Assembly (NCBI RefSeq): GCF_000146505.1
Contig: NC_017448.1
Span: 1,920,001 to 1,952,000 of the forward strand
Direction: 5' to 3'
Length of the DNA stretch: 32,000 nt
DNA from: Fibrobacter succinogenes subsp. succinogenes S85
GTDB lineage: Bacteria; Fibrobacterota; Fibrobacteria; Fibrobacterales; Fibrobacteraceae
A program made the position numbers and the translations under genes. Under the pieces are notes generated by a model that saw only the letters and a program-made list of their open reading frames with translations, had not been told where the DNA came from and did no database searches. Below are positions 1,386 through 26,829 of the stretch, piece after piece (positions within the stretch are counted from its first letter, which is position 1; each line of letters begins with the position of its first letter).

Positions 1386-1393
1386 TGGCATAC

Positions 1394-1422: not shown

Positions 1423-1455
1423 TCAATTTGGGAATGAATTGCATTTTCAAAGGCA

Positions 1456-1866
1456 ATGGTGAAAATGGTTAAAACGGAATACAAAACACAGACTCGCCAG
1501 ATGATTCTGGACTATATGGTCAAAAATCCTGACCGTATTTTCAAGGCTTCCGAAATTGCACAAAGTCTGCCCGATGTTTCGTTGAGCACCATCTACCGCA
1601 ATTTGGCAAGGCTTGAAGAAGCAGGAATGGTGCAAATCGTTGGAGCCGAAAAGAACAACGAACTTCAATACCGCTATACAGGCCCGGGCCGCTGCGCCTC
1701 CAAGATGCACCTCGTCTGCAAAGACTGCGGAAAGTTTTTTCATCTGGAAGGTCCCGCGCTCCGCCTTTTGCAGCATTCCATTGAACGCCTGAATGGCTTC
1801 ATTCTTGACCAGCAGCAATCGGTTTTACTCGGCCATTGCGCCGTTTGCAGCAGACAAAGGAAATAA
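1456..1866 (+). CDS. zur: Fur-family transcriptional regulator, most likely Zur
   Basis: Winged-helix segment (..ASEIAQSLPDVSLSTIYRNLARLEEAGMV..). Two CxxC pairs (CKDCGKFFH and CAVC) typical of the Fur-family structural Zn site. Context between the COG0523 gene and znuA. The start could instead be the ATG at 1465. Confidence 0.8.
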   Translation: MVKMVKTEYKTQTRQMILDYMVKNPDRIFKASEIAQSLPDVSLSTIYRNLARLEEAGMVQIVGAEKNNELQYRYTGPGRCASKMHLVCKDCGKFFHLEGPALRLLQHSIERLNGFILDQQQSVLLGHCAVCSRQRK

Positions 1867-1867
1867 A

Positions 1868-2134
1868 TTGTTCCATTTATTTGACAAGTTGGTGGTAGCG
1901 ATAGCGCTCTTTTACGCAGAGCACCGCACAGAACATCATTGTCATGGCGAGCATTGCCACGTCTGCCACCACATCCACCATTGTCTGGATATCATTTCAG
2001 AATTTTGTTTTGAGCTTGTTGAAGCTCCGATAGCATCAACTTGCCGTTGCTTTCTTTTTAAGTTGGTAAAGTTCGCAGTCATCGTACTGCGCCCGACAAC
2101 GCTTGTTTCACAAAAAATATTACTGCTAAATTAA
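1868..2134 (+). CDS. Small (about 88 aa) His/Cys-rich two-hydrophobic-segment protein, paralog of 5231..5509 (TTG start proposed)
   Basis: This is the part of track ORF 1793..2134 that lies after the zur stop. TTG at 1868 is preceded by AAGGA (1857-1861). The core EHCHVCHHIHHCLDI aligns with EDCPICALIHECEDI of ORF 5231..5509 (8/15 identical, including all 3 Cys). Total length and hydrophobic N- and C-segments are similar. The nucleotide sequences have diverged, so conservation is at the protein level. Confidence 0.45.
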   Translation: MFHLFDKLVVAIALFYAEHRTEHHCHGEHCHVCHHIHHCLDIISEFCFELVEAPIASTCRCFLFKLVKFAVIVLRPTTLVSQKILLLN

Positions 2135-2204
2135 TTTTCAAAGCAGAACAACAACACAACAAGCAGTTTTCCACAAAAATTCCAACATTCCCAAAAGGAT
2201 AAAA

Positions 2205-3197
2205 ATGAAAAAAATTTATTCTCTGGCCTGCGCCATTTTCGTCGCAGCCTTGTTCGCTTTTGTCGCCTGCAACGACGCTCCCCAAAACAACACCACCAAA
2301 GAAAGCAAGCTTTCTGTGGTCACCACCATCTTCCCCGAATTTTCTTGGGCAAAGTCCATTCTCGGTGATCAAACCAATTCCGTAGATCTCGCTTTGCTAA
2401 TCAAGAACGGCATCGACCTGCACAGTTTCAAGCCGACCGCACAAGACATCGCAAAGATTGCAAGCGCCGACATGGTCATTTACGTTGGTGGTGAATCCGA
2501 CGATTGGATTGAAAAAGCTCTTGAAGCAACACCGAAAAAAGGCCGCACAGAAATCAACTTGATGAAGGTTCTTGGCGACCGCGTAAAGGTGGAAGAAGTT
2601 GTCGAAGGCATGCAAGCCGAAGAAGAACACGAGCACCATCACCACGATGAAGAAGTCGAAAACGATGAACATGTTTGGCTTTCACTGAAAAATGCCGAAA
2701 TAATCGTCAATAAAATTGCCGAAGAACTTTCCAAGCTTGATGCCGCCCACGCAACAGTCTACAAGCAAAACGCCGATGCCTACATTGCCCAAATCCAGTC
2801 CCTTGATAAAGAATATCGCGAGGCCGTCAATGGAGCCACCCGCAAGACGGTCCTCTTTGGTGACAGATTCCCATTTCGCTATCTGGTGGACGATTATGGT
2901 ATTAAGTATTATGCCGCGTTTGTTGGTTGCTCCGCTGAGAGCGAGGCAAGTTTCGAGACCATCGCATTCCTCGCAGGAAAAATGGATGCAGAATCGCTTC
3001 CGGTAATTTTCACGATCGAGAACAGCAACGATAAAATCGCCAAGGCCGTCCTCGCTGCAAGCAAAAATTCCAAGAGCGCACAAATCCTCTCCATTAATTC
3101 AATGCAATCCATCACAGAAGCACAAATCGCAGGAGGCATAGATTACCTCTCGCTGATGAAATCCAATTTGGACGTTCTGAAAAAAGCATTGAACTAA
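2205..3197 (+). CDS. znuA: Zinc ABC transporter substrate-binding lipoprotein (ZnuA-type, cluster A-I)
   Basis: Lipobox LFAFVAC; acidic His-rich loop EEEHEHHHHDEEVENDEH typical of ZnuA; DEHVW motif; followed by ATPase and permease genes. Confidence 0.85.
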   Translation: MKKIYSLACAIFVAALFAFVACNDAPQNNTTKESKLSVVTTIFPEFSWAKSILGDQTNSVDLALLIKNGIDLHSFKPTAQDIAKIASADMVIYVGGESDDWIEKALEATPKKGRTEINLMKVLGDRVKVEEVVEGMQAEEEHEHHHHDEEVENDEHVWLSLKNAEIIVNKIAEELSKLDAAHATVYKQNADAYIAQIQSLDKEYREAVNGATRKTVLFGDRFPFRYLVDDYGIKYYAAFVGCSAESEASFETIAFLAGKMDAESLPVIFTIENSNDKIAKAVLAASKNSKSAQILSINSMQSITEAQIAGGIDYLSLMKSNLDVLKKALN

Positions 3198-3223
3198 TTT
3201 CTCTCTTGCTAAGAATAAATCGC

Positions 3224-3904
3224 ATGAATAACAATTTAAATACAAATTCCATAAGTCAAACAAAAAGCCCTTTACTCAAGTGCAGCAACATCACACTTGG
3301 TTACGGGAGCAAGAACATTGTAAACAACTTCAACTATACGATTCATTCAGGCGATTATCTTAGCATTATCGGTCGGAATGGTTGCGGCAAGACAACTTTT
3401 TTGCGCGGGCTCGCAGGCGTTTTGCACCCAAGAGCCGGCAAAATTGAACTCAGCAGCGGCCTAAAGCGAAACCAGATTGGTTACCTGCCACAAATAACAG
3501 TGACGCAAAAAGATTTTCCCGCATCTGTTGAAGAAATTGTTCTCTCGGCGTTCCAAGGGAAAAACCTTTTATTACCATTCTACGGGAAAGCCCTCCGCAA
3601 GCGTGCAGACGAGTGTTTGGAATTGACGCACGCCACAAATTTGCGCAAGGAAAGCTTCCGTGAACTTTCGGGAGGCCAAAAGCAGCGCGTTCTTTTAGCA
3701 AGGGCATTATGCGCTGCCGAAAGGCTTCTGCTTTTAGACGAGCCCGTCACTGGGCTCGATCCCGAATCATCGCAAAACATGTACAACATCATCAAGGACC
3801 TTCACGAAAACAAGAACATGACCATCGTGATGGTAACGCATGATATAGACGCCGCCCGCAACAACTCCACCCGAATACTGAACTTCAACGAAATAATGCA
3901 ATAG
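3224..3904 (+). CDS. znuC: Zinc ABC transporter ATP-binding protein
   Basis: Walker A GRNGCGKTT, signature LSGGQKQR, Walker B LLLLDEP, H-loop VTHD. I prefer the ATG at 3224 to the TTG at 3206 used in the track. Confidence 0.85.
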   Translation: MNNNLNTNSISQTKSPLLKCSNITLGYGSKNIVNNFNYTIHSGDYLSIIGRNGCGKTTFLRGLAGVLHPRAGKIELSSGLKRNQIGYLPQITVTQKDFPASVEEIVLSAFQGKNLLLPFYGKALRKRADECLELTHATNLRKESFRELSGGQKQRVLLARALCAAERLLLLDEPVTGLDPESSQNMYNIIKDLHENKNMTIVMVTHDIDAARNNSTRILNFNEIMQ

Positions 3905-3915
3905 TAACCTGTTTA

Positions 3916-3936
3916 CTAACCACTAATCACTAACCA
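3916..3936. repeat. Heptanucleotide tandem array (CTAAYCA)x3 in the znuC-znuB spacer
   Basis: Read directly: ctaacca ctaatca ctaacca. Confidence 0.9.
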
Positions 3937-3943
3937 CTTTGTA

Positions 3944-4786
3944 ATGCTCGACAAACTCTTCTTCTACCTAGACTTCCCTTTTGTTCGTTATGCGATTATC
4001 GTAGGAACACTCATATCGCTGTGTTCCTCGCTTTTGGGAGTCACGCTCGTTCTAAAGCGCTATTCTTACATTGGCGACGGACTTTCACACGTTGCATTCG
4101 GAGCACTCGCAATCGCGGCAGTTCTTAAAGTCACGAACAACATGCTCATCATTTTGCCCGTGACCATCGTTGTAGCCATTTTGCTCCTCTGCGGAGGTAA
4201 AGACGCGCGAATCAAAGGCGACGCCGCCATTGCCATGGTATCGGCGGGGGCTCTAGCCATCGGCTATCTGCTAATGAACATTTTCTCGTCTTCGGCAAAT
4301 ATCGCAGGCGATGTTTGCACAACGCTTTTCGGTTCCATGTCCATTCTTACGCTCAAGCCGACAGACGTTTATCTTTGCGTAACCCTTTCTGCAATCGTCC
4401 TTGTCACATTCGTCCTCTTTTACCACAAGATTTTCGCCATCACCTTTGACGAAAATTTCGCACGAGCGACAGGCGTCAACGTCAATTTTTTCAACCTCCT
4501 TATCGCAATCATTATCGCAGCGATTATCGTCCTTGCCATGAATCTCGTCGGAGCTTTGCTCGTTTCGGCGCTCGTTGTTTTCCCCGCGCTTTCAGCCATG
4601 CGAGTTTTCAAAAGCTTTTTCACGGTAACAGTTGCTGCAGCCACAATTTCTGTAATCTGCTCACTTACAGGAATCATCGCCGCCATACTTGCCGGGACTC
4701 CTGTGGGTTCAACAATTGTCGCAGCAGACATAGTCGCATTCCTCATTTGCTTCATTGCAAGTACCCTTCGTAATAGGAGAATGTAA
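3944..4786 (+). CDS. znuB: Zinc ABC transporter permease
   Basis: Polytopic hydrophobic protein of about 280 aa, the ABC-3 family size and pattern, immediately after znuC. Confidence 0.85.
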   Translation: MLDKLFFYLDFPFVRYAIIVGTLISLCSSLLGVTLVLKRYSYIGDGLSHVAFGALAIAAVLKVTNNMLIILPVTIVVAILLLCGGKDARIKGDAAIAMVSAGALAIGYLLMNIFSSSANIAGDVCTTLFGSMSILTLKPTDVYLCVTLSAIVLVTFVLFYHKIFAITFDENFARATGVNVNFFNLLIAIIIAAIIVLAMNLVGALLVSALVVFPALSAMRVFKSFFTVTVAAATISVICSLTGIIAAILAGTPVGSTIVAADIVAFLICFIASTLRNRRM

Positions 4787-4787
4787 T

Positions 4788-5213
4788 TTGCATAAAGCAT
4801 TCACCATCATCCTCACAGCACTCGTTTTTACCGTATCTGCTTTTGCCAAAGTATCCACAAATACTCACGCCGATATTGATCTCACGCGCATGAGCAGTAC
4901 CATGGTCTATTCCATAGTTTATCAAATGGTCACCGACCCACAAAAATACACCGGCAAGACCATCAAAATGAAAGGAATATTTTCAAGCTACGTTGACGAA
5001 GAGACAAACCGTCGCTTTTTCGGTTGCGTCATCAAGGACGCTCTCGCCTGTTGCTCGCAAGGTCTCGCTTTTGAGCTTGCCAAGCCACGTAAATATCCAA
5101 GCGAATATCCATCCGAAGGAGCATCCATCACCATCATCGGAACTTTTGAATTCGAAAAAGAAGAAGACGGAATCGGATTCCCGATTATCAAGGACGCCAT
5201 ACTTTTCAGATAA
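4788..5213 (+). CDS. Secreted or lipid-anchored small protein with a CC motif, operon partner of znuACB
   Basis: A TTG at 4788 lies 1 nt after the znuB stop and 8 nt after GGAGA, giving a signal peptide (HKAFTIILTALVFTVSAFA). The segment YTGKTIKMKGIF..FFGCVIKDALACCSQG..ITIIGTFE recalls, from memory, the C-terminal domain of DUF1980/TIGR03943 proteins found in low-zinc regulons. Confidence 0.5.
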   Translation: MHKAFTIILTALVFTVSAFAKVSTNTHADIDLTRMSSTMVYSIVYQMVTDPQKYTGKTIKMKGIFSSYVDEETNRRFFGCVIKDALACCSQGLAFELAKPRKYPSEYPSEGASITIIGTFEFEKEEDGIGFPIIKDAILFR

Positions 5214-5230
5214 TTTCGTAAATCAGTCCA

Positions 5231-5509
5231 ATGATAAACCTATTGAACATGCGTAAATTCGCCATTGTGCTTATCGCGGCAAGCCTTTTGGCAATTGCCC
5301 AGCATCACCATGACGATTTTGACGGTCACGAAGACTGCCCTATTTGCGCATTGATTCACGAATGCGAAGACATTAAAGACCATACACCAGAAGTTACTGT
5401 TTTCTGGTTCATTCTTTTCCTTATAACTATACCACACCTCACACAAAAAACTTTTTCAACAATCCTTCATTACAGGCCACGCGGCCCGCCTAACATCTGT
5501 TTGGCATAA
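5231..5509 (+). CDS. Small His/Cys-rich membrane protein, paralog of 1868..2134
   Basis: N-terminal hydrophobic segment (MRKFAIVLIAASLLAIA), the cluster HHHDDFDGHEDCPICALIHECEDIKDH, and a second hydrophobic segment (VTVFWFILFLITIP). The start may be the second ATG at 5249. It is the last gene before the hairpin at 5540-5569. Confidence 0.55.
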   Translation: MINLLNMRKFAIVLIAASLLAIAQHHHDDFDGHEDCPICALIHECEDIKDHTPEVTVFWFILFLITIPHLTQKTFSTILHYRPRGPPNICLA

Positions 5510-5539
5510 CTCATCCAAAAAAAATAAAGAACACAAGTC

Positions 5540-5569
5540 CGCCTAATTACACCTCTTTAGGCGCTTTTG
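5540..5569 (+). terminator. Terminator candidate ending the zur-znu operon
   Basis: Stem cgcctaa (5540-5546) pairs with ttaggcg (5557-5563), followed by cttttg. Confidence 0.45.
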
Positions 5570-5588
5570 AAACGTTGTCTTAAAAAAA

Positions 5589-5600
5589 GCACAACTGTGC
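5589..5600. promoter_or_regulatory. Perfect 5-2-5 inverted repeat GCACA-AC-TGTGC just upstream of the lipoprotein/TonB-receptor pair
   Basis: Read directly, flanked by A runs, 17 nt upstream of the ATG at 5618. Operator function is inferred only. Confidence 0.3.
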
Positions 5601-5617
5601 AAAAAAAAGGATTTATA

Positions 5618-6121
5618 ATGAAAAAGATTCAATGCTTGGCAATAGCACTTCTCTGTTCACTCTTCGCCGCATGCAGCGACAGCAATTCCACCTCCACCGA
5701 TCAGCACGAACACTTCGAAGCCGAAGGTTGGAACCTCTACTGGCCCGACAGGAAACTCGCCTACAGCGTTTACCAGGGCAAAGAAGACACAAGTCTTGAA
5801 ACGCTCCGCGTCAATGCAAACTGCCTTAGCGAACATTTGACCGTTAAGTTCCTTGATGACGAAAAGAAAGAAGTTTCCGCACCCAAGGACGACGAGCACA
5901 CACTCGGCTGGAGCATTGGCGACGAATCTATCCTCGACATCGAAGCATGTGGCAGCTGGGGTTTCCACTTAAAGGGCGTCAAGGAAGGCGAAACAACGTT
6001 GACGCTCAAGGTCAAGCACCACGATCATGCCGACGCACGTACGCCGGAAATTCGCGTCATTGTCGACAAAGCCTTGAAGGCAGAAGATTGCCCGTTCCAG
6101 GACGATGACGATGATGACTAA
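5618..6121 (+). CDS. Lipoprotein with His-rich patches and a hexa-Asp C-terminus, partner of the TonB-dependent receptor
   Basis: ATG at 5618 preceded by AAGGA; lipobox LFAACSD; HEHFEAEGW and KHHDHAD patches; a Big_2/Ig-like looking segment (GVKEGETTLTLKV); ends in DDDDDD. Its last 17 nt overlap the receptor start. Confidence 0.7.
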   Translation: MKKIQCLAIALLCSLFAACSDSNSTSTDQHEHFEAEGWNLYWPDRKLAYSVYQGKEDTSLETLRVNANCLSEHLTVKFLDDEKKEVSAPKDDEHTLGWSIGDESILDIEACGSWGFHLKGVKEGETTLTLKVKHHDHADARTPEIRVIVDKALKAEDCPFQDDDDDD

Positions 6122-8084
6122 CACCCTTTTTAGGGCTGTCATGGGGAGCCTCCTTTGCGGAGGCTTCCTTCATTTTTCTCTTGCCCAAGAATTTATCCAA
6201 GATTTAGGCAATTCAACAGTTATTGCCGAGCAATCTAGCGAAACAATTTTAAATGGCCTCCGCGAAGACGAAGTTTTAAAAGACGAAAAACTTAACCGCA
6301 AAATTTCTACAACTATCGCAGAGACTATAAAAAACGAGCCCGATATTGCCATCCGTTCGATGGGCCCTGCCGCCGCACGCCCTGTCATCAAGGGGCTTTC
6401 AAGCAGTCACGTCACGCTTACCGAAGACGGTTCCTTTTGCGGAGACATGAGCGCCACCTCGCCCGATCACGCCGTTGCATCCGAAGTCCTGACCGCACAC
6501 AAATTGCGCATCACGCGCGGACCGCAAATTCTCGCACAATCTTTCGCCACCGCAGGCGGTGTCATTCAAGTCAATCACCAAGACATTCCCTACGATGATT
6601 CGCTTTTCCACAGCAACATTGCAAACTACGCCGAAACAGGCCAACCGGGATTCGCAACCGTTATCAGTGCAAATGCCAACGTTCACGGCGTTTCGCTCAA
6701 AGGTGAAGTTTCCGCCCGCAACATGGGCGACATGGAAACATCCAAAGGCACGCTCAAAAATACGGATATCGAAAACAGGAGCATCGCCATCGGTGCCGCC
6801 TACAGCCTCGAACACTTCAAATTCGGAGCATCCTTCCGCTCGTTCAATTCCGATTACGGCATTCCCGGCGGATTCATCGGTGGTCACCCCAACGGCGTAG
6901 ACATTGAACTATCCAAACGCGATTTTACTTTGCAAGGACTGTACATTCCCGCAGCCCGCCCCGACACACTGAACGTCATCTTCCGTTACAATCAATACCA
7001 CCACAAGGAATTTGAGACAAAGAAATACGTCGGTGCAGAATTCGCTGTCAATCAGGCAAACTTGCGCATTGAAAAATTCATCGCCAATAGCGGTCCATTT
7101 TTCGGCATCCACCTCGGTACAGAACTAGACAGCCGCTCTGTCGAAATGGGCGGTTACGTCTTTACACCACCCACCAATTCTTACGCCGCATCGCTATTTT
7201 CCATCGCTAGCATAAACGGATGGGATGGTTTAGAAATCACCTTATCCGCACGACTTGGCGGAGCATTTTTCAGGCCACGCGAAAGCGTCGTTGCAGACAA
7301 AGACGCTATTGAAGACCGCAATTTTGCACTATGGGCTTTCGCTGCCGAATTTTCACAAATCGTCGCCCCCGGGAAATTCCTGACTCTTGATGTTTTCCGC
7401 ACCACACGCGCCCCGACCATCGAAGAACTCTACAACCAAGGTCCGCATCTCGCCGCCTACACTTACGAACGCGGCTATCACAAGCTCGATGATGAAAGCG
7501 GTTACGGAGCAGAACTCGAATTTCGAGATTACGGCGAGCACTTCAACTGGCGAGCCTCAACACACATCACCTGGTTCCTGAATCACTTGGCACCACGCGC
7601 CACTGGAGACACCAACTGGTCCCAACTTTTGCCGATTTATCAAGTCAGCGGAGACGACGCGCTCCTCATGGGCGCAAACGCATCCATCGAGACTTCTGCA
7701 GAGCAGGGATTCTATGCCCAAGCAGGCGCAAGTTATGTTTGTGGATTCTACCAGAACGAAAACTGGAGCGATATGCCACAAATTCCGCCGTTCCATTTTC
7801 ACGCCGAAATGGCTTACATCTGGCAACACGTCCGCGCAGGAATTAACACGGAATTTGCGCTCGCGCAAAACCGCCTAGACCGCTACGAACAACGCACACC
7901 CGGCTATATCACGTTTGGTGCGCTCCTAGAATTCCACTGGTCGCTTGCACTCGCCAATTACAGCATTGTCCTCCGTGGCGATAACGTGTTCAACGCCGAC
8001 GTACGCAACCATCTTTCTCGACTCAAATCCGTCATGCCCGAGAAAGGACGCAATATAAGCATCCTCGCAAAAGTCGAGATTTAG
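6105..8084 (+). CDS. TonB-dependent outer-membrane receptor (metal-type; zinc or copper uptake suspected from context)
   Basis: Signal peptide. Plug-domain motifs (IRSMGPAAARPVIKGLSSSHVTLTEDG, then ITRGPQ..AGGVIQV). Long beta-barrel-like region with alternating hydrophobicity. Alternative ATGs at 6111 and 6114. Confidence 0.85.
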   Translation: MTMMTNTLFRAVMGSLLCGGFLHFSLAQEFIQDLGNSTVIAEQSSETILNGLREDEVLKDEKLNRKISTTIAETIKNEPDIAIRSMGPAAARPVIKGLSSSHVTLTEDGSFCGDMSATSPDHAVASEVLTAHKLRITRGPQILAQSFATAGGVIQVNHQDIPYDDSLFHSNIANYAETGQPGFATVISANANVHGVSLKGEVSARNMGDMETSKGTLKNTDIENRSIAIGAAYSLEHFKFGASFRSFNSDYGIPGGFIGGHPNGVDIELSKRDFTLQGLYIPAARPDTLNVIFRYNQYHHKEFETKKYVGAEFAVNQANLRIEKFIANSGPFFGIHLGTELDSRSVEMGGYVFTPPTNSYAASLFSIASINGWDGLEITLSARLGGAFFRPRESVVADKDAIEDRNFALWAFAAEFSQIVAPGKFLTLDVFRTTRAPTIEELYNQGPHLAAYTYERGYHKLDDESGYGAELEFRDYGEHFNWRASTHITWFLNHLAPRATGDTNWSQLLPIYQVSGDDALLMGANASIETSAEQGFYAQAGASYVCGFYQNENWSDMPQIPPFHFHAEMAYIWQHVRAGINTEFALAQNRLDRYEQRTPGYITFGALLEFHWSLALANYSIVLRGDNVFNADVRNHLSRLKSVMPEKGRNISILAKVEI

Positions 8085-8159
8085 TGGCAAAGCGGTGGCG
8101 ATTATGGTCTTTCTCGCGCGATATTTGTATATTCTTTAGCGTAAAAAAGAAGAATTACG

Positions 8160-9065
8160 ATGGCCGATAAAGAATTGCTTGATAAAGAAGTTTTAAAGAC
8201 CGTTAGCCGCATTGAACTTTCCGTGCGCGGCACGCTCGACACCGTGATGACCGGAGCTTACCACAGTTCCTTCAAAGGGAACGGTATGGAATTCAGCGAA
8301 GTTCGCGAATACATGCCCGGCGATGACGTGCGCACAATTGACTGGAACGTGACCGCTCGAACCGGCACGCCTTACGTCAAAAAGTTCATCGAAGAACGCG
8401 AAATGACTATGCTCCTCATGGTCGATGCTTCAAGCAGCTCCGAATTTGGTTCTGGCAAGCAAATGAAGGGCGAAGTCATGGCAACGCTCACGGCTCTCCT
8501 CGCCTTTGCGGCCATCAAGAATAACGACAAGGTCGGCCTCCTCATTTATACCGATCAGGTCGAACTTTTCATCCCGCCCGAAAAAGGCCGCAAGCACGTA
8601 TTGCGCCTCATCCGCGAAATTCTTTACTTCAAGCCGCAACACCATGGCACCAATACGCAAGTAGCCTTGGAATATGCCGGCAAGATTTTGAACCGCAAAG
8701 CTGTCGTTGTCGTAATGAGTGACTTTTTGGATGAAGGTTTCGAAAACGCATTCAAGATTTTGCGCAAGCGCCATGACGTTCTCGCCGTGTCCGTCGTTGA
8801 CCCGCGCGAAATGGAACTTCCGCCCGCAGGCCTCGTAGAACTCGAAGACCCCGAAACCGGCGAAACGCTTTTAATCGACACTGGCGATGCCGCCTTCCGC
8901 GAAGCATTCGCCCGCGAAGCCAAACGTCAAGGCAAAGCCACCAAGGAACTCTTCCAGCGCATGTCCATTGACTTTGTCCGCATCGAGACTCACGACGACT
9001 TCAAGGAAACCGTCGCCCCGCTCATCGAGCACTTCCGCCGCCGCGCTCGCGCTGCCAGCCGGTAA
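8160..9065 (+). CDS. DUF58 domain protein (vWA-like partner normally coupled to MoxR ATPases)
   Basis: Characteristic segment FSEVREYMPGDDVRTIDWNVTARTGTPYVKKFIEERE followed by a vWA-like MLLMVDASSS block. Confidence 0.85.
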   Translation: MADKELLDKEVLKTVSRIELSVRGTLDTVMTGAYHSSFKGNGMEFSEVREYMPGDDVRTIDWNVTARTGTPYVKKFIEEREMTMLLMVDASSSSEFGSGKQMKGEVMATLTALLAFAAIKNNDKVGLLIYTDQVELFIPPEKGRKHVLRLIREILYFKPQHHGTNTQVALEYAGKILNRKAVVVVMSDFLDEGFENAFKILRKRHDVLAVSVVDPREMELPPAGLVELEDPETGETLLIDTGDAAFREAFAREAKRQGKATKELFQRMSIDFVRIETHDDFKETVAPLIEHFRRRARAASR

Positions 9066-9105
9066 CGCGAAAGCCGCAAGAATGTAAAGCAAAAGCCGTG
9101 CGACT

Positions 9106-11067
9106 TTAAACCGTCGCCGGTCTATACCCGAGCAATTTCATGCTATAAAGCGCAGTGCCCTTGCTGATGCTACGAACACCTGTTGCATATCCGAAAATTT
9201 TTCGAAGCGGCACGTCAGCTTTCAAAAAGTGCGTTTTGCCATCGCCTTCGATTTCTTTCACTTTGCCGTCACGGGCCTGGATATCACCCGTCACAAGCCC
9301 CGCAAAATTCACAGGGCATTCGAGTGAAAGTTCCATCACAGGTTCATACAATTGCACATCAGCAGGTTTCACGAGCTTTGCCACCGCATCCGCACAGCAT
9401 TTCTTGATCATCGGCGGGAGCGCCCCTTCCGTCCATTCAAAGCGATGGACTTCAAAACGCACACCCACAAGCGGGCCCTTGCCGAGCACGCCAACTTCAG
9501 TCGATTCCAAAAGTGCCGAGCGCACGCCTGCCAAAATTTCAAGCGGAGCCTTTTCCATAAATTCCGCAGACAAGCGAATGTCATGCGCATCGCCTTCTAG
9601 CGGAGATGCCGAAATACTGATGGCCATTTTGTGCGGGCCAATCTGGAATGTATTTTCGGCAGGTCCAACTTCGCGGCACAAACGTTCTTGCCACCGCACC
9701 TCAGGGCTCCCTGCACGCACTTCGCAACCAAATTCACGTTTGAGGCGAGCGAGCAAAACATCAAGCTGCACCTCGCCCACGGTATGCAAATACCAGAATC
9801 CGCCATCGTCCTTTTGCACGCGGAAACTCGGATCCATTCGTGCAAGCACTGAGAGGCTGCGTTCCACGTGGGCATAATCTTCCGTGCGTACGCATTCCAC
9901 ACGTGTTTGCAACAATGGCAAATAATTTTCGCTGATTGACGGCGCGGCATTCCCCGCCGCACTCTCGTCTCTCGTCTCTCGTCTACCATCTAACCAAATC
10001 ACCTGCCCGAGTTCCGTTTCAAACGGCGAGACCATCGCATAAATATCGCCCGAACGGATTTCATCCACAGGCAAAAGCATATTCGCCTTGAGCCTTGAAA
10101 ATTCAAAACCCGCCGGCCAATCGCGACGCAACAAATCCACGTGACTGCGGAACAGCGAAATCTCGCCCACGCCACGGAAATGTCTCAAGCGCACAACTTG
10201 CCCAAGCTCATTTTTTACAAACGTCGGGACTTCCGGCAAAAAGAACGAAAGCGCCGTCACAAGGCTGCGAATGCCAAAGCCTTCCAGCGCAGAACCCGCA
10301 TAACAAATCACGTACTCATCGCTAGCCGCAAGAGCTTTGAGCCCACGCAAAAGCATCTTCGGCGGCACCGGCTTATTTTCAAGCGCAAGTGACAAAATTT
10401 CATCGTCAAAATTGCTTGCAAATTCCACCGCTTCATCGTAATACTTTTTCAAAAGCGCACGTTCTTCCGCCGCACCCGCATCCGATTCCCAACCGTCATC
10501 GAGAACTTCCGCGCCCGATTCCGAATGCACCAAGCGGCTCTGGCTCAGCACATCGAGCATCGCGCACATCTTGCCATTTTTAAACTGCGGCACAGACATG
10601 AGCACCGGGCGCACGCCAAGCGTTTCTTCAATGTTGATGAGCGTTTCATCCAGCGAGTAATCGGGATTATCGAGCTTATTTACAAACAAAATCGTACGCA
10701 CGCGAGATTCGCGCAACTTGCGAAATGAAGCAAGCGTCTGCGTTTCAACGCCACTTGCGGCACTCACCACAAGCACAGCGCCTTCCACAGCCGTAAGCGC
10801 CATATCGACTTCGGCACCAAAGTCGACATGCCCCGGCGTATCAATAAAATTGAACCATGTATTTTTCCATTCGAAATGCGCCACGCCACTTTCAATCGTG
10901 ATGCCACGTTCCTTTTCTTCGGGCATGTAGTCCATCGTGGCTAAGCCATCTTCCACACGCCCTGGGCGGTGAATCTCGCCCGCCGCGAAAAGGATTCTCT
11001 CAGAAAGTGTCGTCTTGCCCGCATCAACGTGGGCGAGAATGGCAATATTTCGAATCGGCTGTTTCAT
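9106..11067 (-). CDS. Translational GTPase of the EF-G / Tet(M)-Tet(O) ribosomal-protection-like family
   Basis: G1 AHVDAGKTT, G3 DTPGH, G4 NKLD. At 653 aa its length is closer to Tet(M)-type proteins than to EF-G. ENYLPLLQTRVE resembles the Tet(M) ENPHPLLQTTVE segment as I remember it. Confidence 0.85.
   Translation of the reverse strand: MKQPIRNIAILAHVDAGKTTLSERILFAAGEIHRPGRVEDGLATMDYMPEEKERGITIESGVAHFEWKNTWFNFIDTPGHVDFGAEVDMALTAVEGAVLVVSAASGVETQTLASFRKLRESRVRTILFVNKLDNPDYSLDETLINIEETLGVRPVLMSVPQFKNGKMCAMLDVLSQSRLVHSESGAEVLDDGWESDAGAAEERALLKKYYDEAVEFASNFDDEILSLALENKPVPPKMLLRGLKALAASDEYVICYAGSALEGFGIRSLVTALSFFLPEVPTFVKNELGQVVRLRHFRGVGEISLFRSHVDLLRRDWPAGFEFSRLKANMLLPVDEIRSGDIYAMVSPFETELGQVIWLDGRRETRDESAAGNAAPSISENYLPLLQTRVECVRTEDYAHVERSLSVLARMDPSFRVQKDDGGFWYLHTVGEVQLDVLLARLKREFGCEVRAGSPEVRWQERLCREVGPAENTFQIGPHKMAISISASPLEGDAHDIRLSAEFMEKAPLEILAGVRSALLESTEVGVLGKGPLVGVRFEVHRFEWTEGALPPMIKKCCADAVAKLVKPADVQLYEPVMELSLECPVNFAGLVTGDIQARDGKVKEIEGDGKTHFLKADVPLRKIFGYATGVRSISKGTALYSMKLLGYRPATV
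9962..9982. repeat. (CTCTCGT)x3 heptanucleotide tandem repeat inside the GTPase CDS
   Basis: Three perfect copies, read directly. They encode part of ..RRETRDES.. on the minus strand. Confidence 0.95.
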
Positions 11068-11085
11068 AAGCCCAAAGATACATTT

Positions 11086-12195
11086 TTACCGGTTCATGAA
11101 CGAGAGTTTCAGCGCATTCTTGTAGAGTCGATTTGCCCAAGCTTCGTGACCCGAAGATTCACCATAAAGGTCATCCAGAATCGTCCGGATTCCCGCCACA
11201 CCGCCACCTTTTTTCAAGATGTACACCACAAGCAGGCTAATCACACCCAGCGACGAATTGATAATGTCCAAGTCCGTATTTGCAAGCTGAAACGCTGCCA
11301 AATGGTACGCATCATCGGAATCCTCCTTGATGAGTTTATCTACATCTGCAAGCGTTTCAAAGCGTAAGAACTTCAGCGCCTTCAAAAAAGGCATCATCGA
11401 CGACTCGTGAATTTCCGCCTGGTTGATTGCCGCAATACGCTGGTTCAACTTATCAAACGGTCGCAATTTCAGGTAATTCGTAAACGAGTCGCCGTTCAGC
11501 GCCACCTCATCAAAGCGTCCCGAATGCACAAGCGACTGCACATGATACCTGTAATTATTGATATCCGTACGAATCTTGCAGAACTGCTCATCAACAAGTT
11601 CCAACATTCCCGCCAAGCGGTTCAAATTGCGCAAGTATTCACGAGGAATTTCAAAGCCCGACTTGTAACCCGTATCGTGGTCTAGCGTTGCCCACACATG
11701 TTGCAATGCCGTACGCATCTGAATTTCAAATCGAATTTCATTGAGTTCAGGGTACTCCGGATCTTCGAACAAAGCTTTCGGAATGGTACATATAAAATGC
11801 AACGAGTTATAGCCAAAACTATCGAGTTCGTGCATTTTGCGCTTGTCAACGCTATTTCTCCAGTCAATTTCAAACAAGCTCTCGACAAGCGCTGCGATTT
11901 TATCCACATCGTCGTTATAGAACGCAATCACGCGAGCACCCAAAATGTCCGTCAAATCAGTCAGAGACTTATACTTGCCATTTTTACGTTCAAGCTTTTC
12001 GGCAAGGCTTGCTTCTGCCTTGATTCGCGCTTCAACGGCAGTCACATAGATATTGTTCTCTGCCACTTTTTTCTTGAGCAAATCGCAGACAAAATCCCTC
12101 ATTTTTTCAAAAACAGGGAGCTTATCGCGATAATCTTCAAGAATCATCGTTTCTGCAGGATTCAACCCATATTTTTCAACAGAGTCTTCACTCAT
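11086..12195 (-). CDS. RelA/SpoT-homolog small alarmone synthetase (SAS) with a ~170-aa C-terminal extension
   Basis: Synthetase motifs DILGARVI, GYNSLHF, EIQMRTALQHVWATLDHDTGYK. No HD, TGS or ACT domains. The start ATG overlaps the upstream stop (TAATG at 12193-12197). Confidence 0.85.
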   Translation of the reverse strand: MSEDSVEKYGLNPAETMILEDYRDKLPVFEKMRDFVCDLLKKKVAENNIYVTAVEARIKAEASLAEKLERKNGKYKSLTDLTDILGARVIAFYNDDVDKIAALVESLFEIDWRNSVDKRKMHELDSFGYNSLHFICTIPKALFEDPEYPELNEIRFEIQMRTALQHVWATLDHDTGYKSGFEIPREYLRNLNRLAGMLELVDEQFCKIRTDINNYRYHVQSLVHSGRFDEVALNGDSFTNYLKLRPFDKLNQRIAAINQAEIHESSMMPFLKALKFLRFETLADVDKLIKEDSDDAYHLAAFQLANTDLDIINSSLGVISLLVVYILKKGGGVAGIRTILDDLYGESSGHEAWANRLYKNALKLSFMNR

Positions 12196-12764
12196 TATCT
12201 TCTACCGCCAAATATTTTTTCAATAAGGTCCGTAAATTCTGCATACGCAAAAGTACCTTCGAGTTCTTTCAACGATGCAGCCAAACCGCGATAATGCCAC
12301 TCGTGTTCCTTAATATCGGTCACGTGGAAAATTTTCCAGAGTTCATCGCCTTTTTGGACAAAATCACGATAAATGATTCTTGCATTGCTGAGTTTATCGC
12401 CCATCGCCACAATCTTTGCATCGCGACTGGCCCCTGCCAAGCGGTCAATTGCCGCCTGCTTGCGAGAATGCCAAGAATCCGATTCGCTCACGCCTTCCAT
12501 GAACACGTCCGATTCTTCTTCCACAAGTTTCGCCACGCGCGGTCCAAACTCGCGACTGATATCATCCAAAGTAACAGACGTATCTTCAACGGTATCGTGC
12601 AAAGCGGCAGCCGCCATCAATTCCTGGTCATCCGTCATAGTCGCTACAATTTCCACAGCTTCCATCGGGTGAACAATGTAGGGAAAGCCTTTTCCGCGGC
12701 GACCCGTACCAGCATGCGCCTTGACCGCAAAAACAATTGCCTTGTCGAGAACAGAAGTATCCAT
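12195..12764 (-). CDS. HD-domain small alarmone hydrolase (SpoT/Mesh1-like, SAH)
   Basis: HAGTGRRGKGFPYIVHPMEAVEIV..AAALHDTVEDT..FGPRVAKLVEE matches the (p)ppGpp hydrolase HD signature. The protein is 189 aa and standalone. Confidence 0.85.
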   Translation of the reverse strand: MDTSVLDKAIVFAVKAHAGTGRRGKGFPYIVHPMEAVEIVATMTDDQELMAAAALHDTVEDTSVTLDDISREFGPRVAKLVEEESDVFMEGVSESDSWHSRKQAAIDRLAGASRDAKIVAMGDKLSNARIIYRDFVQKGDELWKIFHVTDIKEHEWHYRGLAASLKELEGTFAYAEFTDLIEKIFGGRR

Positions 12765-12766
12765 TT

Positions 12767-13465
12767 TTAGTCCTCCAGGAAGTACTGAACATTGGTCACA
12801 ACGCGCACGTTCTTGATAAACGGCGTATTTTCATCACGGTCGCTAATGGAGAACTGTCCCTGCGTTGCTGTCTTGATTTTACCGAGCTTGCTTTCGGAAT
12901 CCGTCGCAAACTTTTCAGCAGCAGCACGGGCGTTCTTGTTCGCTTCGTCAATCATCGCGGGCTTGATTTCGTTCAGGCCATTGAAACTGTAAATTTTGCG
13001 GTAGCGGTAATCATCGCCACTGAATGCAATTCCCTGTTTCAAAAGTTCGCCCTGCTTGCCCATGATTTCACGGACGCGATCTACATTCTTCGATGCAACC
13101 GTCGTCACCACTGTTGCAATGTAGCGGAACGGACGACGGTTATCGCCATAGCGTTCGCCTTGGGCATCTTCAATTTCCGGAGCAGACCAGCTGATTTCAG
13201 CCGCATCCACGCCATTATCGCGCAAGAACTTTGCAAGCGTTGCATTTTTCGTCTGCACGGCATCGTGAATCAATGAAAGGTCATTCCCGACTTCTTTGTA
13301 CACAATAGGCCAAATCACAAAATCGGCCTTGACCTCGCGTTCCGAGAGTCCCCGGACCGACACAACACGGTCCCTATCTTTCGTGTGGATCATAGCGCAA
13401 TAGAGGAATGCGCCAAGCCCGAGAATACCAATAGCCAACAATAAAGCTTCTTTAACTCTAGACAT
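12767..13465 (-). CDS. SIMPL/DUF541-like membrane-anchored protein
   Basis: An N-terminal TM helix, then VSVRGLSEREVKAD.., and a C-terminal ..NARAAAEKFA..LGKI pattern reminiscent of YggE/SIMPL proteins. Its stop lies 2 nt from the SAH start. Confidence 0.55.
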   Translation of the reverse strand: MSRVKEALLLAIGILGLGAFLYCAMIHTKDRDRVVSVRGLSEREVKADFVIWPIVYKEVGNDLSLIHDAVQTKNATLAKFLRDNGVDAAEISWSAPEIEDAQGERYGDNRRPFRYIATVVTTVASKNVDRVREIMGKQGELLKQGIAFSGDDYRYRKIYSFNGLNEIKPAMIDEANKNARAAAEKFATDSESKLGKIKTATQGQFSISDRDENTPFIKNVRVVTNVQYFLED

Positions 13466-13519
13466 ATATTTCTCCTTCGCCGCGAAACACCCACGGCTAT
13501 AAGTTTAATATACAATCTT

Positions 13520-13553
13520 GAGTAGTTAGTAGTCACTGGTCAATGGTCATTAG
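13520..13553. repeat. Degenerate heptamer array (AnTrGTC)x4.7 ending ..AATGGTCATTAG
   Basis: agtagtt agtagtc actggtc aatggtc attag, read directly. Same family as 25075..25100. Confidence 0.85.
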
Positions 13554-13573
13554 CCGCAAACATCCCCTATTTT

Positions 13574-13601
13574 CTCTCGTCTCTCGTCTCTAGTCTCTAG
13601 T
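13574..13601. repeat. (CTCTMGT)x4 heptanucleotide tandem array in the divergent SIMPL-operon / pgi intergenic region
   Basis: ctctcgt ctctcgt ctctagt ctctagt, read directly. Same unit as the in-CDS array at 9962-9982. Confidence 0.95.
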
Positions 13602-13657
13602 CTAATTTCTAAATTTTCCCCCGTAACAAAAACCCGCGTGTGCGGAAAGGATAATCT

Positions 13658-15322
13658 ATGTCTAAACTGACTGATTCTAAGGAATGGAAGGCCCTCGAGG
13701 CCCATGCCGAAGTCGCCAAGACTTGGCAGATGAAGGAACTCTTCGCGAAGGACCCGACTCGCGCCGACAAGTTCAGCGCCGAAGCCTGCGGACTCTTCCT
13801 CGACTACTCCAAGAACATCATCACCGACGAAACCATGGCAAAGCTCCAGGACCTCCTGAAGTCTGCCAATTTCGAAGACATGCGCGCCAAGTACTTTGCT
13901 GGCGAAAAGATTAACACCACCGAAAAGCGCGCCGTGCTCCACACCGCACTCCGCTACAAGGGTAACGATCCGATTTGCGTCGATGGCAAGGATGTCATGC
14001 CTGAAGTTCGCGCCGTGCTCAAGCACATGGAAGATTTCACGCATCTCGTCCGTAGCGGCAAGTGGAAAGGCCAAAGCGGCAAGTCCATCAAGTACGTTGT
14101 CAACATCGGTATCGGCGGTTCCGACCTCGGTCCGGTGATGGTCACCGAAGCTCTCAAGCCGTATGCAGAAAAGCCGATCGCAGGCGAAACTTCTCCGGAA
14201 GTCTACTTCGTTTCTAACATCGACGGCACCCACATGGCCGAAACCCTCAAGAAGGTGAACATTGAAGAAACGCTCTTCATCGTTGCTTCCAAGACGTTCA
14301 CGACTCTTGAAACCATGACGAACGCCGAAACTGCAAAGGCCGCCGTCCTCAAGGCATTTGGCGGTGACAAGTCCGCTATCGCAAAGCACTTCGTCGCTCT
14401 CTCCACCAACACCGAAGCCGTTACCGAATTCGGTATCGACCCGGCAAACATGTTCGAATTCTGGAACTGGGTTGGCGGCCGCTATTCCCTGTGGTCTGCA
14501 ATCGGTCTTTCCATCAGCCTCCGCATCGGCTTCGAAAACTACATGAAGCTCCACCAGGGCGCTTACGAAATGGATCAGCATTTCAAGACCGCTCCGGCTG
14601 ACAAGAACCTCCCGGTCATCCTCGCCCTCATCGGCGTTTGGTACAACAACTTCTTTGGCGCATCCAGCTACGCCATGCTCCCGTACGACCAGTACCTCCA
14701 CCGCCTCGCCGCCTACTTCCAGCAGGCAGACATGGAATCCAACGGCAAGACCGTTGACCGCGATTCCAAGCGCGTGAACTACCAGACGGGTCCGATCCTC
14801 TGGGGCGAACCGGGTACGAACGGCCAGCACGCCTTCTACCAGCTCATCCACCAGGGCACCAAGATGATTCCGTGCGACTTCATCGCCCCGGCAAACAGCC
14901 ACAACAAGATTGGCGATCACCACCAGAAGTTGCTCTCCAACTTCTTCGCTCAGCCGGAAGCATTGATGAACGGCAAGACTCTCGCCCAGGCTCAGGAAGA
15001 ACTCCGCGCCGCCGGCAAGTCCGAAGAAGAAATCGCATTTCTCGCTCCGCACAAGGTATTCGAAGGCAACAAGCCGACGAACTCCATCATGATGGACTAC
15101 GTGAGCCCGGAACGCCTTGGCGCTCTCATCGCCATGTACGAACACAAGATCTTCACGCAGGGCGTTATCTGGAACATCAACAGCTACGACCAGTGGGGTG
15201 TTGAACTCGGTAAGCAGCTCGCCAAGAAGATCCTCCCGGAACTTGCAAAGGCCGACGCAGAACTCCACCACGACAGCTCCACCAACGGACTGATCAAGTG
15301 GTTCAAGGCTCACCAGGCTTAA
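13658..15322 (+). CDS. pgi: Glucose-6-phosphate isomerase
   Basis: Full-length PGI signature throughout ([87 protein letters not shown]). Confidence 0.97.
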
Positions 15323-17833: not shown

Positions 17834-20800
17834 ATGAAATCCAAATTACTCTTAACAACATCTATCTTCACGCTTTCCATGCTCTATGGCTGCCTTGACG
17901 AGGTAAGCGAAGCAAGCGCCCCGGACTTGTCCGAACTCGCCTGCAAAACAGAACCGCTAGACGACGATAGCGGTCTCAAGATTATCTGCGGCGGTGATTC
18001 CGTAGGTGTCGTTTTGAACGGCAAAGACGGAAAAGATGGAGCCGATGGTAAAGATGGCAAAGAAGGCAAATCTGGTGCCGACGGCAAAGACGGATCATCC
18101 TGCTACGTCACCGAAAACGCAGAAATCAACGGCTACGACGTGTTCTGCGGCGATGAAAAAATCGGTTCAATCGTGAACGGCAAGGATGGTGCCGACGGTA
18201 AAAATGGTGAAAACGGCGCCAACGGTAAGGATGGCGACAAGGGTGACGATGGCAAGGACGGTAAAGACGGAAAAGATGGAACTTCTTGCCGCATCGAAAC
18301 CAACAAGGATATCAATGGTTACGATGTTATCTGCGGTGACAAGAAAGTTGGTCAGCTCCTTAATGGAAAGGATGGCGAAAACGGCAAGGATGGTAAAGAT
18401 GGCAACGACGGTTCCTCTTGCTCGGTCGAAGTAAACGATGACATCAACGGTTTCGACGTCGTTTGCGCAGGCAAGAAGGTCGGCGAACTCCGCAACGGTA
18501 AGGACGGCCAAGACGGAAAGAATGGTAAAGATGGCAACGACGGTTCCTCTTGCTCGGTCAAAGTAAACGATGATATCGATGGTTACGATGTCGTTTGCGC
18601 AGGCAAGAAGGTCGGTGAACTCCGCAACGGTAAGGACGGCCAGGACGGAAAGAATGGCACCGATGGTAAGGATGGAACCTCCTGCACGGTCGAAGTAAAC
18701 GATGACATCAACGGTTTCGACGTCGTTTGCGCAGGCAAGAAGGTCGGTGAACTCCTTAATGGAAAGGATGGCGAAAACGGCAAGGATGGTAAAGACGGTA
18801 ACGATGGTTCTTCCTGCAGCGTTGTAGAAAATAAGGATATTAACGGTTTCGATGTCATCTGCGGCGACAAGAAGGTCGGAGAGCTCCTCAACGGAAAGGA
18901 TGGCGCTGACGGCAAGAACGGTACCGATGGTAAGGATGGCAACGACGGTTCCTCTTGCTCGGTCAAAGTAAACGATGATATCGATGGTTACGATGTCGTT
19001 TGCGCAGGCAAGAAGGTCGGTGAACTCCGCAACGGTAAGGACGGCCAGGACGGAAAGAATGGCACCGATGGTAAGGATGGAACTTCCTGCACGGTCGAAG
19101 TAAACGATGACATCAACGGTTTCGACGTCGTTTGCGCAGGCAAGAAGGTCGGCGAACTCCGCAATGGTAAGGACGGCCAGGACGGAAAGAATGGCACCGA
19201 TGGTAAAGATGGAACGTCCTGCTCTGTCGTAAAGAACGAAAAGGTCAATGGATACGAAGTCTACTGCGGTACCGAATTCCTCGGATTCCTCACTAACGGA
19301 AAGGATGGCGCTGATGGCAAGAACGGTATCGACGGTAAAGACGGAACTTCTTGCACTGTTGAAGAGAACAAGGAAATCGATGGCTATGACGTCATCTGCG
19401 CTGACAAGAAGGTCGGTGAAATTCACAACGGTAAAGACGGTCAAGACGGTAAGAATGGTACCGATGGTAAAGACGGAACGTCCTGCTCTGTCGTAAAGAA
19501 CGAAAAGGTCAATGGATACGAAGTCTACTGCGGTACCGAATTCCTCGGATTCCTCACTAACGGAAAGGATGGCGCGGATGGCAAGAACGGCATTGACGGT
19601 AAGGACGGAACTTCTTGCACTGTTGAAGAGAACAAGGAAATCGATGGTTACGACGTCATCTGCGCAGACAAGAAGGTTGGCGAGCTCCATAACGGTAAGG
19701 ACGGCCAAGACGGAAAGAACGGCACTGATGGTAAGGACGGAACCTCTTGCCGTGTTGAAGTAAACAAGGATATTGACGGTTACGACGTTATATGCGGCGA
19801 CAAGAAGGTTGGCGAACTCCGAAACGGCGCTAAGGGCGAAAACGGCAAGGATGGTAAAGACGGTAACGATGGTTCTTCTTGCACGGTCGAAGTAAACGAT
19901 GACATCAACGGTTTCGACGTCGTTTGCGCAGGCAAGAAGGTCGGCGAACTCCGCAATGGTAAGGACGGCCAGGATGGAAAGAATGGCACCGATGGTAAGG
20001 ATGGAACTTCCTGCTCTGTCGTAAAGAACGAAAAGGTCAATGGATACGAAGTCTACTGCGGTACCGAATTCCTCGGATTCCTCACTAACGGAAAAGACGG
20101 TGCTGATGGCAAGAACGGTATTGATGGTAAGGACGGAACTTCTTGCACTGTTGAAGAGAACAAGGAAATCGACGGATACGATGTCATCTGCGGTGACAAG
20201 AAGGTCGGCGAGCTCCGCAACGGTAAGGACGCAGTCCTTCCTTCCTCCAGCAGCATCGCTTCTTCAAGCAGTGCAGCACCTTCTAGCAGCAGCAAGGTTT
20301 CCTCTAGCAGTGTCACACCGTCTAGCAGCAGCGTCGCTTCCTCTAGTAGCGTAACGCCCTCAAGCAGCAGCGTAGCCTCCTCTAGCAGCGAAACCCCGTC
20401 TAGCTCCAGCGTTGAACAGCTCAGCGAAAAGTGCAAAACGCTCCGCGCCACAACAGACGTATTCAATTCCCTCTACGACGTTCTCGGTTGCACCCGCTCT
20501 GATGAAAAGGTCGCCATCATCTTGCGCCACGCCCAACGCGACATCAACAAATACGGCGACGACGATGGCCTCATTGACGTCGGTAGAGCACAGGCAAAGC
20601 AAGTCGGCGAAAAACTCAAAAAGCTCAACCTCGACGACTTCTATTACATGTACACCAACGTCAAGCGCACCGCAGAAACCGCACAAATCATCGCCGTGAA
20701 CAAAGGCGAAAACGTTTCGTCAAACATTAACGACTGGCACAAGCATAGCATCGAAAACCTTACTGAAATCAACCAGAACCTGAAGGAATCCTGGTATGTC

Positions 20801-26820: not shown

Positions 26821-26829
26821 GACTATGCA

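Follow-up and report, generated by a model that had tools for sequence, protein, structure and literature searches.

We have analyzed a 32,000-nt stretch of DNA from Fibrobacter succinogenes subsp. succinogenes S85 (NC_017448.1, positions 1,920,001-1,952,000, forward strand), referred to throughout as the window, in which four minus-strand genes form a compact cluster. These genes encode a SIMPL/DUF541 protein, a small alarmone hydrolase (SAH), a small alarmone synthetase (SAS) and a translational GTPase of the elongation factor G (EF-G) family. The genes, and the features within and beside them that are discussed below, are given here with the evidence used to place each one; CTD denotes the C-terminal domain of the SAS, ORF an open reading frame and RBS a ribosome-binding site.

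12767-13465, minus strand: SIMPL/DUF541 protein, 232 aa, first gene of the cluster (ORF list and Pfam)
12195-12764, minus strand: SAH, 189 aa (ORF list and Pfam HD_4)
12193-12197, minus strand: TAATG stop/start overlap, SAH to SAS (ORF coordinates; shared nucleotide 12195)
11086-12195, minus strand: SAS, 369 aa (ORF list and Pfam RelA_SpoT)
11551-12153, minus strand: SAS catalytic (RelA/SpoT synthetase) domain, residues ~15-215 (Pfam, alignments and closest structures)
11089-11550, minus strand: SAS CTD, residues 216-369 (conserved motifs and AF2 model)
9106-11067, minus strand: divergent EF-G-family translational GTPase, 653 aa (Pfam, NCBIfam and PDB comparison)
9934-9987, minus strand: hypervariable linker of the GTPase, residues ~361-378, domains II/III (homolog alignment)
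13466-13657, no strand: divergent intergenic region toward pgi, 192 bp, presumed promoter region (sequence; GGAG RBS)

The 4 ORFs and their spacings are those described in the original prediction, which was made by inspection of the DNA and its reading frames. Two nucleotides (12765-12766) separate the SIMPL and SAH genes, the SAH and SAS genes overlap by 1 nt, and a gap of 18 nt (11068-11085) lies between the SAS gene and that of the GTPase. Pfam also agreed with the domain identities that had been assigned to all four genes (SIMPL, HD_4, RelA_SpoT and GTP_EFTU/EFG_III/EFG_C, respectively). A pattern scan of the gene junctions of the cluster found no terminator-like site; an RBS-like GGAG precedes the SIMPL start codon in the pgi-facing intergenic region, where a single promoter-like sequence, matching at the level of the consensus only, was observed at 13536-13507. 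We infer that the SIMPL, SAH, SAS and GTPase genes are probably co-transcribed. The neighbors of the cluster are housekeeping genes (pgi, DUF58 and zinc uptake), the G+C content of third codon positions (GC3) of the locus is ordinary and without compositional anomaly, and the same pgi-adjacent position was found in many Fibrobacter species. No defense-island or prophage context was seen in the window around the four genes, and neither Rfam families nor tRNA genes were found when the window was scanned. The locus is chromosomal and vertically inherited, and has the appearance of neither a mobile toxin-antitoxin (TA) module nor a defense island.

The catalytic domain of the SAS matched Pfam family PF04607 (RelA_SpoT) over residues 57-180, scoring 63.8 bits where 27 are required (E=2.2e-17), and the motifs RxKxxxSxxxK, DxxGxR, GYxSxH and ExQxRT are all present. 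In alignments, residues R57, K59, S63, K67, D83, G86, R88, G128, Y129, S131, H133, E157, Q159 and R161 were invariant or nearly so, and H166 is likewise among the conserved residues of the core motifs. The nearest solved structures are those of RelP and RelQ (E about 2.5e-13), and Foldseek agreed with this result. CapRel was detected at E=4e-4, over the catalytic core only, and no other solved synthetase of the toxic type (toxSAS) was detected by the SAS in the PDB search; it should be noted that this comparison with solved toxSASs serves as a proxy for assignment to a subfamily of RelA/SpoT homologs. The SAS is like RelQ and RelP (SAS1 and SAS2 of the Firmicutes) in having a single RelA/SpoT synthetase domain with all of the ATP and acceptor motifs, but it is only ~22-28% identical to them, carries an extra CTD and has a dedicated SAH partner. 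Also, NCBIfam model NF053588 (YjbM/YwaC) was not passed (64.4 bits, compared with a cut-off of 320). The isoelectric point (pI) of the catalytic domain is 5.0, and the domain is acidic in all of the family members compared, which we use as a proxy for tRNA binding that is not decisive. Judging from the sequence, the nucleotide product of the SAS is most likely (p)ppGpp, made from GDP or GTP. When the four proteins were searched with PADLOC, the SAS matched PDC-S33 with 64.6 bits, at profile positions 36-176 of 349 only, and no further matches were obtained among the four. PDC-S33 was rejected as diagnostic for the SAS because the match is partial and the same partial match is given by distant relatives.

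The original prediction had described a helical C-terminal extension of the SAS and had pointed to a possible likeness to the C-terminal domain of CapRel, and only the first of these claims was borne out. The CTD (~155 aa; 154 residues) is mostly helical, specific to the family and has no Pfam annotation; its motifs IAAINQAEI, TDxDII and GGG are conserved, its mean column identity across the genus is 69%, and the same invariant motifs occur in the SAS of the window and in a member of the family (P0110/L003) that is linked to partner-switching genes. Foldseek results with the full-length SAS were dominated by the catalytic domain, and the CTD was therefore modelled separately. The AF2 model of the CTD alone was a confident one (pLDDT 91.7, pTM 0.86), and its comparison with the PDB and BFVD, the two collections covered, gave no significant neighbor (best E=2.1). 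Neither 7ztb/9erv nor any other PDB chain was matched at E<2, and no conserved YXXY motif was found in the sequence or alignment of the CTD.

The SAH matched Pfam family PF13328 (HD_4) with 69.5 bits (3.5e-19), and its HD...ED motif is intact (AALHDTVED). It aligns with the SAH structures 7qoc and 7qoe, which together with 4yf1, all of them bacterial SAHs, and MESH1 are its best relatives in the PDB. To judge from these features, it is a Mesh1-like HD-domain 3'-pyrophosphohydrolase, and the Fibrobacter SAH has been catalogued as Mesh1-L (PMC3153485). The survey of Atkinson et al. 2011 credited the Fibrobacteres with Rel, two unplaced divRel proteins and one Mesh1-L, an inventory that the pair in the window fits as one divRel and the Mesh1-L.

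We used a SAS profile to scan one genome per GTDB species and found a relative in at least 518 species. Our counts of synteny refer to the best 80 loci (L004-L083) of these, of which about half are from Fibrobacter and about half from metagenome-assembled genomes (MAGs) of Bacteroidales; SAS identity across the 80 loci is 54-98%. Neighboring genes were scored by tblastn with the window proteins and with proteins from one relative, on the same strand as the SAS gene, with the following results.

SAH: 66/80 loci, SAS strand, adjoining the SAS
STAS protein: 41/80 loci, SAS strand
RsbW-like HATPase_c_2 kinase: 39/80 loci, SAS strand
dCache-HAMP-SpoIIE phosphatase: 29/80 loci, SAS strand
APH-like kinase: 29/80 loci, SAS strand
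Y_phosphatase3: 15/80 loci, SAS strand
SIMPL: 6/80 loci, SAS strand, directly upstream of the SAH in 3 of these 6
EF-G-like GTPase: 5/80 loci, SAS strand, after the SAS

The gene order is SAH-SAS in most Fibrobacter, and SAS-SAH in Bacteroidales and some Fibrobacter. Because the adjacency of the two genes survives this flip in order, we regard it as strong evidence for selection on the SAS-SAH pair itself, and the predicted pairing of hydrolase and synthetase is in this sense confirmed across two phyla. In about 14 of the 80 loci a SAH is missing from the 8 kb around the SAS. The GTPase gene, in contrast, was found beside the SAS gene only in loci whose SAS shares 74% identity or more with that of the window (L004-L007 and L009), and all of these loci belong to the closest F. 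succinogenes clade. In L006 and L007 the GTPase is present and SIMPL is not; in L009 an unrelated gene for a secreted protein of 205 aa (9172-9789) splits the SAS from the GTPase; and in none of the Bacteroidales loci is SIMPL linked. Since linkage of the GTPase and SIMPL is confined to few loci, the conserved unit is the SAS-SAH pair, and the GTPase and SIMPL are lineage-specific additions and not obligatory parts. These counts and the L009 insertion contradict the suggestion that the four genes are a hard-wired module: when their synteny was checked, the SAS-SAH pair was kept in relatives, but the four-gene arrangement for the most part was not, the GTPase and SIMPL being linked in a few loci only. 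We note in addition that the 205-aa protein of L009 resembles the Fibrobacter major paralogous domain, as judged from sequence motifs alone, and that two loci labelled Bacteroidales / Cryptobacteroides (L032 and L038) have a SAS that is 64-66% identical to that of the window, and so as near to it as the SAS of many Fibrobacter species. The latter observation suggests either gut transfer between phyla or mislabelled MAG contigs.

The other genes that recur beside the SAS encode components of partner-switching pathways, and they are closely packed with it. In L043, from a Bacteroidales MAG, seven abutting or overlapping genes (3728-9659) encode the SAS, the SAH and proteins with HATPase_c_2, dCache/HAMP/SpoIIE, STAS, Y_phosphatase3 and APH domains, and in L055 (4152-9110) the order is SAH, APH, a dCache-SpoIIE-HATPase_c_2 fusion, STAS and SAS; such joining of phosphatase and kinase in one protein is seen in some of the operons. 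Signalling genes and the SAS gene are often spaced by 1-20 nt or overlap in the 80 loci, and the STAS gene often ends 3-20 nt ahead of the SAS start. These loci are similar to the RsbU/RsbV/RsbW and SpoIIE/SpoIIAA/SpoIIAB systems in that HATPase_c_2, STAS and PP2C proteins of the SpoIIE type are encoded together, within the same operon as the SAS; they differ from these systems in that no sigma factor gene is present in the partner-switching SAS operons. Because a sigma factor gene is absent from the operons, the SAS is the obvious candidate for the output of the cascade. Moreover, L058, L063, L081 and L083 retain the RsbW-STAS-SAS arrangement and have no SAH within 8 kb, which argues that the SAS would be controlled post-translationally, beyond the action of a mere antidote. 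Genes for STAS, RsbW-like kinase and SpoIIE proteins were found nowhere in the 32-kb window, and this is a further difference of the F. succinogenes locus from the two known systems. Our literature searches found no paper that joins alarmone synthetases to partner switching, and none on this F. succinogenes locus. With regard to the APH-family kinase, its gene follows that of the SAH after a gap of ~7-10 nt in about 25 Bacteroidales loci, and in two Fibrobacter MAGs it lies between the SAH and SAS genes (L010:1495-4002 and L011:4873-7381).

The GTPase gave Pfam matches to GTP_EFTU (6.7e-54), EFG_III and EFG_C, and no Pfam match to EFG_IV or to domain 2. Its G1, G3 and G4 motifs (AHVDAGKT, DTPGH and NKLD) and its catalytic His are intact. 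None of the curated EF-G, EF-G2 and Tet cut-offs of NCBIfam is reached, the scores being 313.9 bits for EF-G model TIGR00484 (cut-off 659.4) and 248.6 for tet_protect model NF012153 (cut-off 775); in the PDB, EF-G chains scored about 263 bits, compared with about 159 for Tet(M)/Tet(O). It had been proposed that the GTPase is closer to ribosomal-protection proteins than to EF-G, and the higher scores of EF-G in both collections reverse that order. The accompanying view, that the GTPase is not housekeeping fusA, agrees with a score under the EF-G equivalog cut-off and with the replacement of the decoding-loop motifs of domain IV, which differ from what we take to be the EF-G consensus. The GTPase aligns end to end (residues 5-648) with the T. 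thermophilus EF-G homolog 1wdt and has its five-domain layout, and it shares with EF-G and EF-G2 the G' insert of the G domain, EFG_III and EFG_C, and the catalytic His; it differs from them in its hypervariable linker between domains II and III and in its location outside the str operon. It is best described, from these comparisons, as a divergent EF-G paralog, neither fusA nor a recognizable ribosomal-protection protein. Among F. succinogenes-type strains it is 96-99% identical outside the linker, where insertions of up to ~60 aa give rise to homolog lengths of 653-713 aa. The homologs listed are all at least 90% identical, and the near-identical ones are named Fibrobacter succinogenes or Fibrobacter sp.; the GTPase counts given above concern SAS loci. 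The SIMPL protein has an N-terminal hydrophobic anchor and matched Pfam family PF04402 (SIMPL/DUF541) with 54.8 bits, compared with a cut-off of 25.2 (2e-14).

An exhaustive search of representatives clustered at 50% identity extended the family to 1183 SAS+CTD clusters at E<=1e-30, with proteins of ~350-380 aa. The distant SAS+CTD relatives (30-40% identity) stand alone, without a SAH. Such stand-alone members were seen on a B. finegoldii phage-plasmid, on a 3.5-kb Klebsiella ColE1-type plasmid, of which the gene is the main cargo, and in a Vibrio filamentous phage; Bacillus members lie in an integrase/Abi_C/McrB/RES island or beside a Gabija-like OLD-TOPRIM+UvrD pair, and other distant members are in neutral contexts. 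We give the positions of 5 here.

L084:4013-5086, L085:436-1572, L086:3959-4969, L087:5001-6062 and L094:5001-6071: stand-alone SAS+CTD relatives, 27-37% identity

From their sequences and contexts, the stand-alone relatives are candidates for single-gene defense or toxin proteins. No full-length homolog of the window SAS was found in phage and plasmid collections, which yielded catalytic-domain relatives only. In the aggregate, the wider SAS+CTD family has a defense and mobile-element flavor, and the Fibrobacter/Bacteroidales subfamily is set apart from it by the SAH and the signalling neighbors. The TA or phage-defense reading that had been raised for this operon thus finds some backing among distant SAS+CTD relatives, on mobile elements and in defense islands, but not at the locus in the window, which is chromosomal, adjacent to pgi and of ordinary composition. 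We also observed, in a sporeformer lineage, a 366-aa SAS+CTD member that is encoded between spoIIIAH and asp23/nusB and is followed, after 108 nt, by the gene for an RF3-type GTPase (prfC); this SAS-RF3 adjacency was seen in L089 (5001-7810), L090, L091 and 20 more similar places, and may be due to chance.

The reading of these observations that we favor, and to which we would give about an even chance, is that the SAS and SAH are a regulated couple for a 3'-pyrophosphorylated purine nucleotide, under control of the CTD, with the EF-G paralog and SIMPL as lineage-specific neighbors. With ATP as the donor, the SAS would pyrophosphorylate a purine nucleotide at its 3'-OH; the nucleotide is most likely GDP or GTP, which would give (p)ppGpp, and the translationally coupled Mesh1-like SAH would strip that pyrophosphate, so that the two proteins together would be equivalent to a split Rel enzyme. 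Output of the SAS would probably be set by its own CTD, which would serve for regulation or docking. For most of the relatives, those in Bacteroidales and in several lineages of Fibrobacter, it is plausible that an RsbW-like/STAS/dCache-HAMP-SpoIIE cascade has the SAS as its output; in the F. succinogenes clade cis linkage to partner switching is absent, and the EF-G paralog is found downstream and SIMPL upstream. A more specific form of this proposal holds that the SAS+CTD enzyme of Fibrobacterota and Bacteroidota is the direct output of a sigma-less switch whose dCache sensor phosphatase, STAS protein and RsbW-like kinase dock on the CTD, and that the pair was rewired to the EF-G paralog in F. 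succinogenes, and we see only a small chance that it is right in full. Several points weigh against the regulated couple. Control by partner switching is extrapolated from relatives to a window that is itself without these genes. The catalytic domain of the SAS is 33-37% identical to SAS+CTD proteins of phages, plasmids and defense islands, and there are hints, from such comparisons, of a toxic ancestry. The 18-nt spacing between the SAS and GTPase genes and the adjacency of SAS and RF3 genes in sporeformers could mean that a link to a GTPase is real. Finally, SAHs are known antitoxins: every toxSAS tested was neutralised by SAHs, which can also remove pyrophosphate from tRNA (PMC7229694; bioRxiv 10.1101/2021.04.30.441581).

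One rival reading is a type IV TA system of the FaRel/ATfaRel type, in which the SAS would be a growth-arresting toxSAS that acts by synthesis of (pp)pApp or by pyrophosphorylation of tRNA, the SAH would be its antitoxin, and the GTPase and SIMPL would be bystanders. FaRel/ATfaRel of Cellulomonas marina (Jimmy et al. 2020, PMC7229694) is likewise a SAS beside, and sometimes overlapping, a small HD hydrolase with the potential to reverse its reaction, and both the 1-nt overlap of the SAH and SAS genes and their adjacency in 66 of the 80 loci are consistent with such a system, as are the catalytic-domain relatives on mobile elements and in defense islands and the weak PDC-S33 match of the SAS. 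However, ATfaRel is a SAH of the PbcSpo type and the Fibrobacter SAH is Mesh1-like, and the Fibrobacter pair is syntenic throughout its lineage and has a link to signalling genes. The locus is inherited vertically, with genus-wide synteny, and is not patchy in its distribution; a nearby SAH is missing from ~14 of the 80 SAS loci; the commonest extra partners are signalling proteins and not mobile-element genes; the nearest solved enzymes are the housekeeping RelP and RelQ, with CapRel the only toxSAS detected; and the acidic catalytic domain is weak evidence against tRNA binding. With these observations in mind, we consider a TA system rather unlikely. Defense against phage by a CapRel-like mechanism, in which the CTD would autoinhibit the SAS and free it on encounter with a phage protein, with the SAH as a safety valve, we hold to be highly improbable. 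The two proteins are alike in size (369 aa and 373 aa), each having a SAS-type domain at the N-terminus and a CTD of similar size, and more distant relatives of the window SAS are also found in defense or mobile contexts, beside Gabija-like or Abi/RES/McrB genes or on a phage-plasmid; the PDC-S33 match, moreover, is over the catalytic core of the SAS. Against this, the CTD of CapRel is a pseudo-zinc-finger domain and is fast-evolving (PMC9712102), and the CTD of the window SAS is highly conserved and has neither a fold match to that domain nor the YXXY motif. The window SAS, unlike CapRel, is encoded at a chromosomal site in a housekeeping-like context, its similarity to CapRel is limited to the catalytic core, and neither a defense-island or prophage context nor a PADLOC match for the other proteins of the cluster accompanies it.

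A circuit directed at the ribosome, in which the alarmone would act on or through the co-expressed EF-G paralog and SIMPL would be a membrane link, also seems to us clearly unlikely. Translational GTPases are established targets of (p)ppGpp. The GTPase gene follows the SAS gene by 18 nt with no terminator, its product has an intact GTPase center and is under strong purifying selection, as seen in its high identity outside the linker, and in more than 20 contigs the sporeformer member of the family immediately precedes RF3/prfC. Yet the GTPase adjoins the SAS in 5 of the 80 loci only, all from one clade, and even there a secreted-protein gene intervenes in one case (L009); SIMPL does not accompany the GTPase in L006 and L007, and is unlinked in all of the Bacteroidales loci; and the RF3 case, which is set within a row of housekeeping genes, could be fortuitous. 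We also considered whether the GTPase is tied to the upstream zinc-uptake cluster, as a Zur-type paralog, and rejected this; the genes are convergent, DUF58 lies in between and no support was found.

The remainder of the window contains the following features. At 237-8084 is a cluster of the zinc-uptake type, consisting of genes for a CobW-family GTPase, ZnuA, an ABC ATPase and an ABC-3 permease, followed by one for a 659-aa protein that has no Pfam match and that was labelled TonB-dependent-receptor-like by eye only. A DUF58/VWA gene at 8160-9065 is convergent with the gene of the EF-G paralog. On the minus strand at 13550-15313 is a 587-aa ORF, antisense to pgi and opposite a gene of high GC3; it is almost certainly spurious. 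A protein of 1140 aa (17834-21256) has collagen triple-helix repeats and a His_Phos_1 domain, and GC skew turns positive (+0.21 to +0.23) across 18001-20000. The segment at 25000-31000 is low in GC (0.40-0.43) and contains several ORFs without Pfam matches and a gene for a Bro-N protein (26902-27750); it could be an island of mobile or phage origin.

Enzymes of both kinds, SAS and SAH, had been described before, and so had their pairing; the Fibrobacter copies were counted in 2011 and left unclassified. What is new here is a distinct SAS+CTD/SAH subfamily that spans Fibrobacterota and Bacteroidota and for whose CTD no fold match could be detected, its frequent occurrence within partner-switching operons, and its clade-specific EF-G paralog neighbor. 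SASs are usually seen as housekeeping enzymes (RelP/RelQ) or as toxins (toxSAS), and this family fits neither description. In the fiber degraders of the rumen and gut (Fibrobacter and many Bacteroidales) the SAS-SAH pair is a core, vertically inherited one, with an unclassified, putatively regulatory domain, and in most genomes it is part of a partner-switching signalling operon. The EF-G paralog of F. succinogenes is a separate candidate for an alarmone-linked ribosome factor. If the link to partner switching is true, gut anaerobes would have a direct route from extracytoplasmic signals, sensed by a dCache phosphatase, to signalling of the (p)ppGpp type, and this would be a previously undescribed on/off switch for alarmone synthesis.

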